Part shown: in pieces, positions 15,302-25,876 of the stretch
How the letters are laid out: each line of letters opens with the position of its first letter
Numbering within the stretch: the stretch's first letter is position 1
Assembly (NCBI GenBank): GCA_964342465.1
Contig: CAYFFQ010000002.1
Span: forward strand, 1 to 60,556
From: an uncultured Candidatus Poseidoniales archaeon
GTDB taxonomy: Archaea; Thermoplasmatota; Poseidoniia; Poseidoniales; Thalassarchaeaceae
Length of the DNA: 60,556 nucleotides
Direction of reading: 5' to 3'
Position numbers and translations under genes: made by a program
The notes under the pieces: model-generated
Databases searched by the model: none
The model's input: only the letters and a program-made list of their open reading frames with translations
What the model was told of the DNA's origin: nothing

Positions 15302-16009
15302 TCAGTGATGTGTGACCGCAGTAAGTAAATCTTCACTTTGGTTCGCCACATTGTTGACCTGCTGAGAAACTTCATGGTGGTCGATTTCGAGCGAAACCGC
15401 ATCCACACGCTCTCTGTCAACACATTGAATGGCGATTTCTGCGGATAGAGAGGTGTCCAACCACATCTGCCAATCCTCACGACCGAGCAACGCCGGCATG
15501 CGATGGTGAACCGACGAAAATTGTGGGCTGGCTGGAGATGTGATTATCGTGAAGGATTCTATGAGGTCTCCCTCACCACCCGACCATGAAGTCCATAGAC
15601 CGGCCAGCGCTAGTGGTTCCCCGTCCCTGTGATAGTGATAAAATGGAATCCTTTCTCCACCATCCTTCACCCATTCAAACCAGCCGTTGGCAGGGATGAT
15701 GCAACGTCTGCGGCTGGTCAGTGGGGCGAACATCCGCTTCTCCAGAATGCTCTCGACTCGGGCGTTGATGGGCCGAAATCTCGGCTTGTGACCACCCCAG
15801 GATGGATGCAGCCCCCATTTCATAAGTCGAATGTGGCGAGGCGCTTCTCCAATCACGCCGACGGGTGGGGCTGCGAGAATTACTGGGTTCCACGTAGATG
15901 GTGCGATATTGAATCGCGGTTGCGGGGCGATGGATTCGGGTAGGGGTTCACTGTCAAAGTGAATCGCCAGCATCTGCTGGTCTGCATGCAAGGCGAACCG
16001 TCCACACAT
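15302..16009 (-). CDS. SOS response-associated peptidase (SRAP/HMCES/YedK family)
   Basis: N-terminal MCGRF (catalytic Cys2), RFNIAPS, INARVES, RRCIIPANGWFEW, LALAGLW, VHHRMP; true start ATG 16009. Confidence 0.95.
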   Translation of the reverse strand: MCGRFALHADQQMLAIHFDSEPLPESIAPQPRFNIAPSTWNPVILAAPPVGVIGEAPRHIRLMKWGLHPSWGGHKPRFRPINARVESILEKRMFAPLTSRRRCIIPANGWFEWVKDGGERIPFYHYHRDGEPLALAGLWTSWSGGEGDLIESFTIITSPASPQFSSVHHRMPALLGREDWQMWLDTSLSAEIAIQCVDRERVDAVSLEIDHHEVSQQVNNVANQSEDLLTAVTHH

Positions 16010-16057
16010 CGTTTCAGGGATGGCCAACCTTCGGTTTGGTCTTTGCGCACACTCACG

Positions 16058-16193
16058 CCCTCACATTCAGTGTGCGGCCGGGAGAGATGTACATCGAGAA
16101 AGGCATCACCCGCACACCCTCACATACAGTGTGCGGTCGGGAGAGATGTACATCGAGAGAGACATCACCCGCACACCCTCACATACAGTGTGC
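16058..16193. repeat. 59-bp tandem repeat, about 2.3 copies
   Basis: CCCTCACA anchors at 16058, 16117, 16176; unit contains the palindrome GATGTACATC and a GCACAC...GTGTGC hairpin. Confidence 0.92.
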
Positions 16194-16211
16194 TTTCACT
16201 TTGAATGTGAG
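16193..16211 (+). promoter_or_regulatory. Candidate DNA-damage-response box upstream of the inactive RadA gene
   Basis: CTTTCACTTTGAATGTGAG; 17/19 identical to the box upstream of the polB2 unit. Confidence 0.5.
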
Positions 16212-16281
16212 TTTAGACCTCCCCCTCTGCGGCAGCAATTGACTTTGCTGACCTTTTGTGGCTACGAGTCGGTGAAATCAG

Positions 16282-17202
16282 ATGAAATCGTTGGACTGGG
16301 ATGATAGCGGTGATGGCGAAGTGGTGCCGACTCCGTGTGAGACCACTGCTTGCGCTGGACATGTGGATGGAGGATGCGGCTGTGGGCGATTCCAGCGAGA
16401 AACGGAGGACACATCAGGGAAGATAGGGTGGTCTGACAGACGCCTCGACGAATCTATGCCACCCCTCCGCCTCGGCACAATCAATTTGCTGCTCAATCAG
16501 GGGGAGCGGATGCGCGACTTGATGATGCGGGTCGCCGTAGTTGAATTGGCGAGCGGATTCCAAGTGCATTGGGTCGATGGAGCGGGTCGCATAGACCCTG
16601 GCAAAATGATGCCGCATCTCAGGAGAGTTGGCTGTGAACCTCGATGCGGGTTGTCCAGATTGAAGGTCAGCCGAGCCCACACTGCCTATCAGTTGGCGGG
16701 ACAGATAGAGAGATTGGTGGGGGCGGGTAGCGGGTTGCACGAACAGAATCGGTTATTCGTCATTGACAACCTGTCGGCGATGTTCTCGGACCCCCAACTC
16801 CTCACTTCAGAGAGTGTTTCTCTTCTCAATCGCGCCATGGCCAACTTGCGTACCTTAGCAGAGAGGGGGGTATGCATTCTCATCTCATCGTCACGGCCGA
16901 GGCAATCCACCACCCATTCGATTCTAGAACGGAGCATGACCAGCCGTAGTGATGTGGTGATCCACGCAAGAATGCAGCACGGCCGAGGTGAAGCGGTTGT
17001 GCAAATGGTATGTCAGGGCGAGCATCGCAGCGTGGTGACTTGGCTTCCGCCCCCTGCATCTCAATCACTTCTTTCTGATTTCAAACCGAATGAATCGAGA
17101 GTCAGCACCAGACTTCTCTCGCCCCTTCGGGATATTCCCTCCTCATCCCAACCGAATGGCGAGAGAATAGCCCAGACCGCCCGCCGCGCCAGCGGCTCAT
17201 AG
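16282..17202 (+). CDS. Inactivated RecA/RadA-fold protein (iRadA, ImuA-like)
   Basis: VHWVDGAGRID, LKVSRAHTAYQL, Walker B-like LFVIDNL; no GxxxxGK Walker A; C-terminal QSLLSDF. Confidence 0.75.
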   Translation: MKSLDWDDSGDGEVVPTPCETTACAGHVDGGCGCGRFQRETEDTSGKIGWSDRRLDESMPPLRLGTINLLLNQGERMRDLMMRVAVVELASGFQVHWVDGAGRIDPGKMMPHLRRVGCEPRCGLSRLKVSRAHTAYQLAGQIERLVGAGSGLHEQNRLFVIDNLSAMFSDPQLLTSESVSLLNRAMANLRTLAERGVCILISSSRPRQSTTHSILERSMTSRSDVVIHARMQHGRGEAVVQMVCQGEHRSVVTWLPPPASQSLLSDFKPNESRVSTRLLSPLRDIPSSSQPNGERIAQTARRASGS

Positions 17203-19496
17203 AATCCCACATCACCTTTCATCCCTGAAACTGAATCAGCACCTAACCTGATTTCGGCGGCCAATCTCACCCGTTCAGACAAATCGTTCGCCCTCCATGC
17301 GACAACCGCAAAATGGATTTTCCTGCCGGCAGGGGCCGCATGGCCAAGGGCGGCAGCTCTTGATAGAGCAGCAGTCGTAATCGTTGTCACCCTCTGGTCA
17401 CCTAATTCCTTGCGAATTCGTCTCCCTACGATAAGGTCTGATAGTGGTATCTCACCATTTGTGAGCGACTCCAACTGCTCATGCAAGTAATTGATAACTC
17501 TGAGTTGGTTGTCATGCGTCGTATCGAATTTCAGGGTCTCGAGTGCCTCTCTCTGCAATCGCTCAACCCACGGACAGGTGGAGTGCTGACGCAGTTCTAT
17601 CCCTCTGACTTTCCACCCCTCGCCACCGTGACCGAAGTACTTGGTCAGAGCGCCTACACCGCTGGTTCTGTTGGGGATGAAGCAGATCCATTCATATTCA
17701 TCTTCCAAGTCTATGGGAATGCCAATTTGATTCAACACCTTCTCCTTGATACTCTCTATAGACCGCAACCTGTCGCTACTTGACCTCGCTTGTGTATCGG
17801 TTAGCCACATTGAATCGACAATGGCATGCAGAGTCTCCCAACCCTCTTCAGTGGCAATCTCAATCGCCTGTAAAAGAATCTCACGCGCCCATGCGCAAAT
17901 CGCTTCATGGCATTCGATTCTGCCGAATCTTGCATTTCGGTAGCCGGTATAACCGAAACAGGTGACCAAGACCCATTTGAGGGCGTTCTGCCGCCCATCC
18001 CACACATCACCCTTTTCCACTCGGCGGCTTTTCAGTTGAGCCCGCCTTTCGATTATCGGGGCGACAACCCTGCCGAGAAACCCATGCCGCCTCGTACAGG
18101 TGTGTAGGTTCAGTTCCGGCACATCAAGAACCATCTCGACATCATTGCTGGGGTCCAATCTCCGAGCCACTTCCTCAGCCGCCTCATCGGTGAGGAGAGG
18201 TAGTTTTCCATCAATTGTCTCACCCATTGGGGGTGGCTGACAACAGAGGCAGTTGAGGGTCTCGGGACTGATGTTGCGGGTAGCGATGATGCTTGGGAAC
18301 AGCGAGGCAAAATCGAGTTCAACGACCCTTTCGTGGTATCCACTCACAGGGTCGAGGTAGAGGCCGCCGCGGTCAGCGGCCAGCAACTCCAATCCATCCT
18401 TGACATCCTCGGGGCGGTTCTTTTTCCAAGGCACTAGGACACCATCTTCCATCGCCAGCCGCATCTGCATGGCGCTAATCGCTGAGCCGGGTGAGAGGCG
18501 AGATATATCCTGTCCCGATAGACCGGCCATACGAGCCAGTTCAATAAGACCAGAAACTCCACCCTCTCGGACGATGAAGGAACCGGCCATGTCGATGTGG
18601 ATTCTACCCTCAAGTGCATGATAGGACTCTCTGCGCAACAACCTCCCGTATGACCATGTGGTTCTCCCCTTGGTGCGTGGAGTAAGTCCCTTCTCACTTC
18701 GACCCAACAGGAGTGGTTCATCGATTGATGCAGCGAGCCGCCTCAATGCCGGTAGGTCTACGCTGTCGCCGGCATCGGTGACTATCACATCGGGGTCCAG
18801 TGACCGAATGAGATGATGTAGTCGCGCCAACATCTCGCTTGGCGGCTCCCTCTTGATGGTGTACACTGGCCCATCTTCCTCTCTGCCCACGACCCCTCGC
18901 TCCTGAATTGTGATGGATGACAGTTCAGCAGCAGGTCTCCGCTGTCCATGTTGGTCGTGGCAATCACAGTGGAGATGAATGATTTTCAATGGGGGGAGGT
19001 CTAATGAGAGGTCCAGCCTCTCATCGATGGCGGTGATTACATTTCCTTCCACGCTGACCCTTCCAAATGGATGGACACCTCTATCCAAGAGGTGTCGCTG
19101 TGCCATTTTCTGGTCGACGGAATAGAGATGGTGGTGATGCCAATCGCCTCGCCCATCTATCGCTGCTGCAAGTTGGGCGAGGCGCGAAGGCCTGTCTGTT
19201 GACACGGATAAAACGGTGGTCGCCCTCTCCGCCCCAAGTTCGGTTGAATGTCTTTCAAATCGGCATCGTAGGTTTCCGAAAGCGGTATGCAGTTCCGGCT
19301 CTCCGAGCCAGCGTGCCAATTGTTCCAACCTCTCTATGTCGGCTGCAACATGGAGGGCGACTCTCCATCTCTCTCTCACGGAGATGGCCTTGCCACCTTC
19401 CAATTTGACCCAGACGACCATCTCGTCACCATCGAGGTGACAGTCCAGCACCCATCCCCTGTGGGCTGAATTTTCATTGCCATCGTCTGTCATCAC
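17061..19496 (-). CDS. polB2: Family B DNA polymerase, archaeal PolB2 type
   Basis: Motif A LDFASLFPSII..NISPET, motif B RQNALKWVLVTCFGYTGY, motif C HAIVDS (vs YGDTDS), KVRGIELR; degenerate exonuclease motifs. Confidence 0.9.
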   Translation of the reverse strand: MMTDDGNENSAHRGWVLDCHLDGDEMVVWVKLEGGKAISVRERWRVALHVAADIERLEQLARWLGEPELHTAFGNLRCRFERHSTELGAERATTVLSVSTDRPSRLAQLAAAIDGRGDWHHHHLYSVDQKMAQRHLLDRGVHPFGRVSVEGNVITAIDERLDLSLDLPPLKIIHLHCDCHDQHGQRRPAAELSSITIQERGVVGREEDGPVYTIKREPPSEMLARLHHLIRSLDPDVIVTDAGDSVDLPALRRLAASIDEPLLLGRSEKGLTPRTKGRTTWSYGRLLRRESYHALEGRIHIDMAGSFIVREGGVSGLIELARMAGLSGQDISRLSPGSAISAMQMRLAMEDGVLVPWKKNRPEDVKDGLELLAADRGGLYLDPVSGYHERVVELDFASLFPSIIATRNISPETLNCLCCQPPPMGETIDGKLPLLTDEAAEEVARRLDPSNDVEMVLDVPELNLHTCTRRHGFLGRVVAPIIERRAQLKSRRVEKGDVWDGRQNALKWVLVTCFGYTGYRNARFGRIECHEAICAWAREILLQAIEIATEEGWETLHAIVDSMWLTDTQARSSSDRLRSIESIKEKVLNQIGIPIDLEDEYEWICFIPNRTSGVGALTKYFGHGGEGWKVRGIELRQHSTCPWVERLQREALETLKFDTTHDNQLRVINYLHEQLESLTNGEIPLSDLIVGRRIRKELGDQRVTTITTAALSRAAALGHAAPAGRKIHFAVVAWRANDLSERVRLAAEIRLGADSVSGMKGDVGFYEPLARRAVWAILSPFGWDEEGISRRGERSLVLTLDSFGLKSERSD

Positions 19497-19622
19497 AATC
19501 CTCCACTAACGGGTTTGTCAACCTCCATGTATGCGACATCACCACAACAGACATCTCTTTCTCTCCCAAGGGGTCGCCACCCCGCTACAACAGTCATTCG
19601 GCAAATTGGCGAGTGAAATGGC

Positions 19623-19791
19623 GGTTCAGGATTCCAATTCATCAATTTCTCACTCAATCGCAGTTTCGGTTGAATGGTCGGCATGGTAGTCGTGGTTCAG
19701 GATTCCAATTCCTCGATTCTCACTCAATCGCTGTTTCGGTTGAATCTTCGGCATGGTAGTCGTGGTTCAGGATTCCAACTCCTCGATTCTC
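19623..19791. repeat. 70/71-bp tandem repeat (about 2.4 copies) containing the 3' end of the upstream gene
   Basis: GGTTCAGGATTCCAA anchors at 19623, 19694, 19764; on the minus strand each copy encodes (R/I)-x-E-L-E-S-stop. Confidence 0.92.
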
Positions 19792-20021
19792 CGCTCAAGC
19801 CGAGCCATCTTGCAATAGGCATCGACCATGATGGCGAGAAACATCGGTTCCATCGGTTCTGATGTCGGCATCATCCCACCTGCTGAAGCGCGCTCCCGCA
19901 CCGATTTGGCCATCTTGTCCAAAGCGAGTTTGTCCTCCGTCCGCAGAGCCCTCCTGAAGTTGTTCCAAGCGACCATTCTCTCCTCTATTCTCATGCGCCA
20001 TGTCGATACTGTGCGACCCAT
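19767..20021 (-). CDS. Small alpha-helical PolB2-associated protein (arCOG07300-like)
   Basis: MGRT..TWR, FRRALRTEDK pattern, helical, directly upstream of polB2; family recalled from memory. Confidence 0.7.
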   Translation of the reverse strand: MGRTVSTWRMRIEERMVAWNNFRRALRTEDKLALDKMAKSVRERASAGGMMPTSEPMEPMFLAIMVDAYCKMARLERRIEELES

Positions 20022-20071
20022 GCACTTCTCCTTGAGGACGAGGTAGTAGACGGTATCTCACGCACCCGCAC

Positions 20072-20090
20072 CTCACCTGCAAAGTGAAAG
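20072..20090 (-). promoter_or_regulatory. Candidate DNA-damage-response box upstream of the small gene-polB2 unit
   Basis: Minus strand CTTTCACTTTGCAGGTGAG; a second CACTTTCAC lies 20 bp upstream (20104-20112). Confidence 0.5.
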
Positions 20091-20231
20091 TGTTCTATCG
20101 GTGGTGAAAGTGGTTGTATGCAGGCAGTAACAACACCACTAGAGAGTCAGTAATTCTATGAAAATGAAAGGGCGAAACTTTCGCCTATTTGTTGGCCGAG
20201 ACATCATCTATCGTCAAAGTTCACATTCCTG

Positions 20232-25599: not shown

Positions 25600-25650
25600 T
25601 CCCATGGTCAAAGGCGAACAGCGGTGCATCATAAACCCGCCCACACCACG

Positions 25651-25876
25651 ATGACAGGTCGCTGTCGGTTATGGCGAGACGACTATGTGACAATTCACGC
25701 ACACCTCAATGACAGGTCGCTGCCAGACATGGCTTCTCGACTCTCGGCCAATTCACGCACATCCCGATGGCAGTTCGCTGTCGGTTATGGCGAGACGACT
25801 ATGTGACAATTCACGCACACCTCAATGACAGGTCGCTGCCAGACATGGCTTCTCGACTCTCGGCCAATTCACGCAC
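25651..25876. repeat. 58-bp x4 higher-order (ABAB) tandem repeat
   Basis: Unit starts at 25651, 25709, 25767, 25825; conserved ATGACAGGTCGCTG and CAATTCACGCAC flank alternating 26-nt cores. Confidence 0.93.

Follow-up and report, generated by a model that had tools for sequence, protein, structure and literature searches.

Marine Group II archaea are abundant in sunlit surface waters and uncultured, and the regulation of DNA damage responses in archaea outside the Sulfolobales is largely uncharacterized. Here we describe a promoter element found in a 60,556-nucleotide (nt) stretch of DNA (contig CAYFFQ010000002.1, hereafter the window) from a Candidatus Poseidoniales archaeon of the family Thalassarchaeaceae. 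The window carries a split module for the translesion polymerase PolB2, made up of two convergent units, PPB2-polB2 and iRadA, and a similar 19-nt box stands upstream of each unit. The genes and boxes at the locus are as follows (aa, amino acids).

15302..16009, minus strand: SRAP, an abasic-site-shielding peptidase (Pfam SRAP, 4.6e-62), divergent from iRadA
16193-16211, plus strand: box 1, CTTTCACTTTGAATGTGAG, its end 70 nt 5' of the iRadA ATG (16282)
16282..17202, plus strand: iRadA, an inactivated RadA paralogue of 306 aa, convergent with polB2
17061..19496, minus strand: PolB2, a family-B translesion polymerase of 811 aa (Pfam DNA_pol_B, 3.6e-21)
19767..20021, minus strand: PPB2, a small helical PolB2 partner of 84 aa (MGRTVSTWRMRIEE...), of a family named in PMC11791011
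20059-20052, minus strand: GAGATACC, the likely TATA box of the PPB2-polB2 unit, 20 nt 3' of the core of box 2 and ~30 nt before the ATG
20090-20072, minus strand: box 2, CTTTCACTTTGCAGGTGAG, its end 50 nt 5' of the PPB2 ATG (20021)
20112-20104, minus strand: a further copy of CACTTTCAC, 20 nt 5' of the core of box 2
20159..20170, minus strand: a degenerate third copy, CTTTCATTTTCA

PolB2, the small helical PPB2 and the inactivated RadA are encoded together, and this arrangement is kept in relatives: PolB2 orthologues were found in three same-genus and 12 Poseidoniaceae genomes and at 80 Poseidoniales loci. The same three proteins constitute the PolB2 mutasome, and SRAP genes are enriched near polB2 (PMC11791011). 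Pfam searches with PPB2 and iRadA returned no match; iRadA is named after PMC11791011 and identified by position and conservation, as its start and position are kept in relatives. The true start of SRAP is MCGR at 16009.

A sequence-only reading of the window had reported the two 19-mers and a second copy 20 bp upstream of the polB2-unit box, and all three were recovered at exactly the coordinates listed, the boxes agreeing at 17 of 19 positions in the same orientation relative to transcription. The pattern CTTTCACTTTGNANGTGAG, allowing at most two mismatches, has two matches in the window versus 0.01 expected from 100 dinucleotide shuffles, and the whole genome (2.2 Mb, 45 contigs) holds no further match to either box at the same tolerance. 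Only part of each box is shared with relatives. In box 1 the conserved core is TTCACTTTG (16195-16203), preceded by a degenerate first hexamer (GCTTTC), and in box 2 the tandem core CACTTTCACTTTG spans 20092-20080 on the minus strand, while the 3' parts, GAATGTGAG and CAGGTGAG, are specific to the present genome.

Conservation of the core was evident in an alignment of the 180 nt upstream of PPB2 from 16 genomes, covering four genera and two families with PolB2 identities of 44-69%. A single block, TTCACTTTCACTTT, was conserved in this alignment; its columns A.TTT.A.TT are invariant, its flanks are not conserved, and all 16 promoters contain the core. Among the 73 Poseidoniales PolB2 loci with a recognizable PPB2 start, 64 carry A-N-TTT-[C/T/A]-A-[C/G]-[T/A]-T and most of the others near-variants; in these 64 loci the 10-mer ends a median of 53 nt before the PPB2 ATG (range 48-62). 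On the iRadA side, TTCA[C/G]TT occurs at about -60 to -75 in most of 79 promoters (overall range in orthologues about -60 to -85), those of the same genus reading TCACTTTCACTTTG. The motif that had been proposed to link both convergent units of the split module is thus present, rather than absent, upstream of their orthologues in relatives. Judging from these alignments, we take the functional part of the boxes to be their 5' 11-13 nt core, with the consensus TTCACTTTCA[C/G]TT, made up of two tandem hexamers of the CACTTT / ANTTTC type.

The same core precedes other genes. We scanned the present genome with a position weight matrix (PWM) built from 20 sites, using crude gene calls that place 87% of the sequence in coding regions, and seven of the nine best matches fell between these genes. 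Box 2, at 22.8 bits, is the second-best site in the genome, and box 1 scores 17.2 bits. The following targets were found elsewhere in this genome (ORF, open reading frame).

Contig C18: radA
Contig C23: a 136-aa OB-fold protein with weak Ssb-like and tRNA_anti-codon matches
Contig C29: a 189-aa protein with weak beta-propeller matches
Contig C1: an ORF of ~63 aa
Contig C2, 197.8 kb: an ORF of ~96 aa, then a DUF3860 protein

Across 41 Poseidoniales genomes, the exact 13-mer TTCACTTTCA[C/G]TT occurs 147 times, or ~3.6 times per genome versus 0.21 expected under an order-3 Markov model (a control reading the motif backwards is void, since TTCACTTTCACTT reads the same in that direction). Pooling 80 further 13-mer sites with the orthologue loci gave 134 unique sites. 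For 94 of them, the gene that follows in the same sense belongs to one of nine recurring families, the distance to its start codon being mostly 47-62 nt.

WD-like protein (~190 aa): 29 sites
p86/DUF3860 operon (86-aa ORF and winged-helix protein): 23 sites
Small protein of 58-73 aa: 22 sites
PPB2: 5 sites
OB-fold protein: 4 sites
RadA: 4 sites
98-aa protein (p98): 3 sites
MobA-like transferase: 3 sites
iRadA: 1 site

The motif is enriched before radA and an OB-fold gene of the SSB/RPA-like kind, two kinds of gene for which the sequence-only reading had proposed such a test. The WD-like family shows the most regular arrangement, with TTCACTTT at the same position in 28 of 28 readable orthologous promoters (26 with the strict A.TTT.A.TT), genomes without PolB2 included. 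The OB-fold promoters of Thalassarchaeaceae hold two copies flanking GGGGCGTAGCCCC, and elsewhere in the regulon (OB-fold, p86-DUF3860) promoters often have, like that of PPB2, a second copy further upstream, at a spacing of 36-42 nt. An Rfam search of five motif loci yielded neighboring tRNA genes only; at loci L225 (200-386) and L239 (1062-1226), a tRNA gene lies ~80-100 nt from the Poseidoniaceae p86-DUF3860 promoter and its motif pair, in divergent orientation. An unexpected candidate for the regulon is the MobA-like nucleoside triphosphate transferase (PF12804), whose ATG is preceded at 46-47 nt by the exact 13-mer in three genomes of the genus (L255, L287, L289, L216), and a homologue lies at C8:53873-54448 in the present genome.

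At radA the motif is arranged differently. Of 28 radA upstream regions, 21 have the tandem motif in inverted and seven in forward orientation. A forward/inverted pair at a distance of 100-150 nt from the ATG is typical, and a conserved TTGATATAC TATA box follows downstream of the motif. In the genus of the window, a proximal TCACTTTCAAC also lies ~25 nt upstream of the radA TTGATATAC. Many palindromic sites that had been left unassigned proved to be radA promoters. The promoter in the present genome is laid out as follows.

C18:18335-18500: radA promoter, with TTCACTTTG, a 13-nt gap, an inverted TTGAAACTGAAAGTGAA (these motif sites at C18:18335-18373), a proximal CCACTTTCAAC, the TATA box GATTGATATATG and the ATG at 18500

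We took the placement of the TATA box from this radA alignment of 28 promoters. At PPB2 and WD-like promoters the motif is followed at 15-20 nt by an A-rich, TATA-like block that stands ~35 nt 5' of the ATG, and GAGATACC is the likely TATA box of the PPB2-polB2 unit given its resemblance to the radA-promoter TTGATATACC and TTCATATAC and the position of the A-rich block. The element would lie ~15-25 nt upstream of the region of the transcription factor B recognition element (BRE) and the TATA box, and ~50-70 nt before the start codon. Such a position seems to suit an activator better than a roadblock repressor, and because the site is upstream of the TATA box we lean, by a modest preference, toward activation rather than repression.

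The consensus contains words that have been described in other archaea. In Halobacterium sp. NRC-1, TTTCACTTTCA, an 11-bp motif with an internal TTTCA repeat, precedes genes induced by ultraviolet-B (UV-B) radiation, including radA1, and is located 5' of the TATA box, ~50 nt from the start codon; it is also found in radA promoters of other haloarchaea and Methanospirillum, and an unnamed regulator was proposed (Boubriak et al. 2008, Saline Systems 4:13, PMC2556686). In Sulfolobus islandicus, induction by damage depends on the hexamer ANTTTC, located at -23 to -55, to which Orc1-2 binds (Sun et al. 2018, NAR 46:6697, PMC6061795). Both motifs had been named in the sequence-only reading, in agreement with the published accounts. 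A full-text search of archaeal papers for the Halobacterium word found Boubriak et al. only, and no regulator for that motif was found in the literature searched. By its sequence, the Poseidoniales element would be this published euryarchaeal UV-response word, now with the PolB2 mutasome among its putative targets.

Taken together, we consider it probable that the core is a cis-element that is conserved across Poseidoniales and governs a small regulon, and the best-supported reading of its role is that of a LexA-independent damage-response element, as the sequence-only reading had suggested. Of that earlier proposal, the conserved element linking the module and its radA and OB-fold targets stand, and the dyad and the strict pattern discussed below do not. 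The core would act as an upstream promoter element, most likely bound by a transcription factor, and would tie the convergent PPB2-polB2 and iRadA units into one regulon, the other members of which are radA, the OB-fold, single-stranded-DNA-binding-like gene, the WD/beta-propeller-like gene, the gene for the 58-73-aa protein, and the 86-aa ORF with the DUF3860 winged-helix gene. We infer that this regulon is most likely switched on by DNA damage, because the same word marks Halobacterium UV-B genes, because ANTTTC of Sulfolobus is related and because of the gene content.

Several observations weigh against a damage-response element of this form. About 30% of the exact sites either have no assigned target or fall within genes, that of the Lon protease being one, and the MobA-like nucleotidyltransferase is a recurrent target with no obvious tie to DNA repair. 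A crude promoter survey of the present genome gave no general TATA signal, only a Shine-Dalgarno-like GAGGTG. In haloarchaeal PolB2 operons (Halobacterium salinarum PHS1, Haloferax volcanii pHV4 and Halorhabdus tiamatea pHTIA) the motif is absent in three of three, so the coupling of PolB2 to the motif is lineage-specific. The motif is also not conserved upstream of the divergent Orc1/Cdc6 paralogue (28 orthologous promoters), and DUF3860 is confined to Poseidoniales while the motif occurs in haloarchaea as well.

The alternative that survives best is that the motif marks a replication or cell-cycle regulon, for example under an Orc1/Cdc6 paralogue, instead of a damage regulon. We regard this as unlikely, though it has points in its favor: the related ANTTTC is bound by an Orc1/Cdc6 protein (PMC6061795), orc1/cdc6 genes are enriched near polB2 in archaea (PMC11791011), and two Orc1/Cdc6 paralogues are present in 41 of 41 genomes. 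While radA, the OB-fold protein and the polymerase could equally be S-phase genes, the replicative genes PolB1/PolD, MCM and PCNA were not found among the recurrent targets. Moreover, the identical word in Halobacterium marks UV-B-induced genes (PMC2556686), and the Orc1-2 regulon of Sulfolobus is itself a damage regulon (PMC6061795).

Two candidate regulators were considered. Orc1/Cdc6 paralogue 2 has CTTTTACTTTG upstream in the present genome, which would have made it an autoregulated member, and was set aside since this site is absent from the 28 orthologous promoters, which share CTAAGAACGG. This shared block, [T/C]CTAAGAACGG (in Poseidoniaceae, TTCAAGAACGG), is present in all genera (L298-L326) ~30-60 nt 5' of the Orc1/Cdc6 paralogue 2 start and is unrelated to the motif. 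The DUF3860 protein (PF12976) was modeled as a winged helix (AlphaFold2, predicted local distance difference test score, pLDDT, 86), with 2OD5, annotated as 'putative nucleic acid binding protein' in the PDB, as its best PDB match, followed by TFE-alpha, PadR, ROK and Fox domains. Two DUF3860 paralogues occur in 41 of 41 Poseidoniales genomes. Type 2 follows the 86-96-aa ORF behind two motif copies, usually 42 nt apart (C2:197768-198414 in the present genome), and this two-site operon has the pattern expected of a putatively autoregulated factor. Type 1 lies ~7 kb from the Orc1-1 gene in conserved synteny (C6:46823-47086). As a universal binder DUF3860 was rejected, being absent from 14 control genomes; its absence from Haloferax, one of these, means that it is not the reader of the haloarchaeal motif, and it would be at most a lineage-specific regulator.

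The 3' half of the boxes bears on a second alternative, namely that the 19-mer is a palindromic operator for a locus-specific dimeric repressor. Both boxes contain TCAC-N7-GTGA, a dyad that the sequence-only reading had pointed out. Three further features of the locus are relevant here.

15963-15947, minus strand: box-like TTCACTTTGACAGTGAA in the SRAP coding sequence, at codons about 16-21
16054..16193: a 59-nt tandem repeat of 2.4 copies, between the SRAP start and box 1 and abutting box 1
19623..19791: a 70-nt tandem repeat of 2.4 copies, beginning in the last 25 nt of PPB2

Box 1, box 2 and the copy within SRAP all read TTCACTTTG-N3-GTGA and account for three of the four such sites in the genome, and the inverted full-motif pairs at radA indicate that recognition in both orientations occurs. 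Even so, the GTGA arm is missing from all orthologous PPB2 and iRadA promoters compared, even within the genus, and from the other regulon promoters of the present genome. The dyad is not conserved because the 3' part of the 19-mer, GNANGTGAG, is conserved in no relative, and this lack of conservation already suggests that GTGAG is dispensable. The SRAP-internal TTCACTTTGACAGTGAA is probably a coincidence, as it is not kept in same-genus SRAP genes, which encode YFDTQ where the present genome encodes HFDSE; the fourth site is antisense inside an acyl-CoA dehydrogenase gene. As a regulon signature TTCACTTTGNNNGTGA had to be dropped: a genome scan with this strict pattern, as had been proposed, gave four sites, three at the locus and that one intragenic site. 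We therefore find the operator improbable, and the 3' GTGAG, and hence the dyad, is by these comparisons a peculiarity of this locus in the present genome and not part of the element.

The origin of the 3' extension may lie in the repeats. Each 59-nt unit holds CTCACAT[T/A]CAGTGTG, which repeats the 3' half of box 1 in inverted and degenerate form, and the extension TG-N-A-N-GTGAG occurs without the core three times in this repeat, directed towards SRAP, with the SRAP-proximal copy ending 50 nt before the SRAP ATG. The 59-nt repeat is absent from same-genus relatives. The 70-nt repeat widens the gap between PPB2 and polB2 to 270 nt, versus 13 nt in relatives, so that the usual tight coupling is lost, and the gap contains a 63-aa ORF (19493-19684) that overlaps the polB2 start. 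The window has another intergenic tandem repeat at 25642-25876, with a 58-nt unit in ~4 copies and a 116-nt super-period at 96% identity, and tandem duplications of about 58-70 nt seem to arise readily in the present genome. The 17/19 agreement of the boxes would fit either gene conversion or duplication within the locus, or else a second site specific to it.

An element acting at the RNA level, that is, a 5'-untranslated-region motif UUCACUUUCACUU bound by a protein or small RNA, would account for the fixed distance to the start codon (47-62 nt) and the uniform orientation at most targets, but we consider it very improbable: at radA the strongest copies are in inverted orientation, 100-150 nt from the ATG, with a clear TATA box downstream of them; the A-rich block follows the motif at PPB2 and WD-like promoters; and the Halobacterium motif is upstream of the TATA box as well (PMC2556686). 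That the 17/19 identity has no function and merely results from gene conversion or local duplication in a region prone to repeats is hardly credible, since, although box 1 abuts a repeat with inverted copies of its 3' half, another repeat adjoins PPB2 and the identity exceeds what the consensus requires, the core stands at the same position in dozens of genomes without the repeats, which refutes this origin for the core and leaves it to explain only the 3' extension.

The neighborhood of the module showed further features in other lineages. In Poseidoniaceae (L005-L016, L051-L112), the gene divergent from iRadA encodes the Y-family polymerase DinB (...ERILVHCDLDAFFA) and not SRAP, and the iRadA/DinB gap has a conserved GGTGTTT[C/G]AAnTT[G/C]AT, separated from the motif by 20-45 nt and from the DinB ATG by ~22 nt, which is probably the DinB core promoter. 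The haloarchaeal operons are co-directional, in the order iRadA-PPB2-PolB2, followed by a gene for an Orc1/Cdc6-like AAA ATPase, and share GAAAC-N-TGGAA[A/G]CG...CCACGCC..CTTATCGG in place of TTTCACTTTCA (L357 1480-1680, L358 170-368, L359 830-1030). On pHV4 of Haloferax volcanii, a TnpB gene is inserted between PPB2 and polB2.

Under the damage-response reading, the analyses yield a short, concrete list of co-regulated uncharacterized genes, and the predicted UV/damage regulon is directly addressable in existing diel metatranscriptomes. The presence of the regulon in 41 of 41 genomes, together with the paired Orc1/Cdc6 and DUF3860 paralogues, offers comparative handles for finding the binder. 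That a third major lineage has the same word, with fixed geometry and at both radA and the PolB2 mutasome, speaks for an old and general element. A bolder proposal, which we put forward tentatively and think somewhat doubtful, is that TTTCACTTTCA is an ancient 'SOS box' of Halobacteria, Methanomicrobia and Poseidoniales, related to ANTTTC and read by one conserved regulator, which would be either an Orc1/Cdc6 paralogue or a factor not yet recognized. If true, this would name new damage-response proteins, namely the WD-like protein of ~190 aa, the 58-73-aa and 86-aa proteins and the DUF3860 winged-helix protein, the last of which could be the autoregulated or secondary regulator of the lineage.

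Compared with known systems, the regulon resembles that of the bacterial SOS box, or LexA operator, in that a short site precedes a recombinase, translesion polymerases and an SSB-like gene, and in that one member is a small protein with a DNA-binding fold. It differs from it in sequence, which is unrelated, in being a direct repeat and not a palindrome, and in lying upstream of the TATA box and not over the promoter. To our knowledge, archaea do not have LexA. The module has the same three genes, PPB2, PolB2 and iRadA, with a SRAP neighbor, as described for the PolB2 mutasome (Makarova et al. 2014, PMC4104785; Timinskas et al. 2025, PMC11791011), and would likewise be expected to respond to damage. 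Those accounts cover proteins and gene order and no promoter element (the word 'promoter' occurs 0 times), whereas here iRadA is convergent and so needs a promoter of its own, which bears the same box.

The likeness to Sulfolobus lies in the hexamer itself, ACTTTC or AGTTTC, often within ANTTTCAG as in the Sulfolobus consensus AATAGTTTCRG, in its position within ~70 nt of the ATG, and in the PolB2 (Dpo2) operon, which would belong to the damage response in both lineages, the Sulfolobales PolB2 operon being damage-induced (PMC11791011). In contrast to Sulfolobus, the hexamer is in tandem here and lies somewhat farther from the ATG, at -50 to -70 versus -23 to -55 and so on the margin of the published range or outside it, the flanks of the 20-nt consensus are not shared, and the Ups, Ced and TFB3 genes did not turn up among the Poseidoniales targets. 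The Halobacterium element differs in its lineage and targets, as the present one belongs to Poseidoniales (Thermoplasmatota) and its targets include the PolB2 mutasome, the OB-fold gene and uncharacterized genes. It is otherwise closely alike: TTCACTTTCA[C/G]TT contains TTTCACTTTCA, many Poseidoniales sites are exact and box 2 matches at 10 of 11 positions, with five exact TTTCACTTTCA sites in the present genome versus 1.6 expected. In both, the motif lies ~50 nt before the start codon and upstream of a TATA box (a putative one here), stands at radA, and has few sites in each genome. Both the Halobacterium word TTTCACTTTCA and the Sulfolobus word ANTTTC are found within the Poseidoniales consensus.

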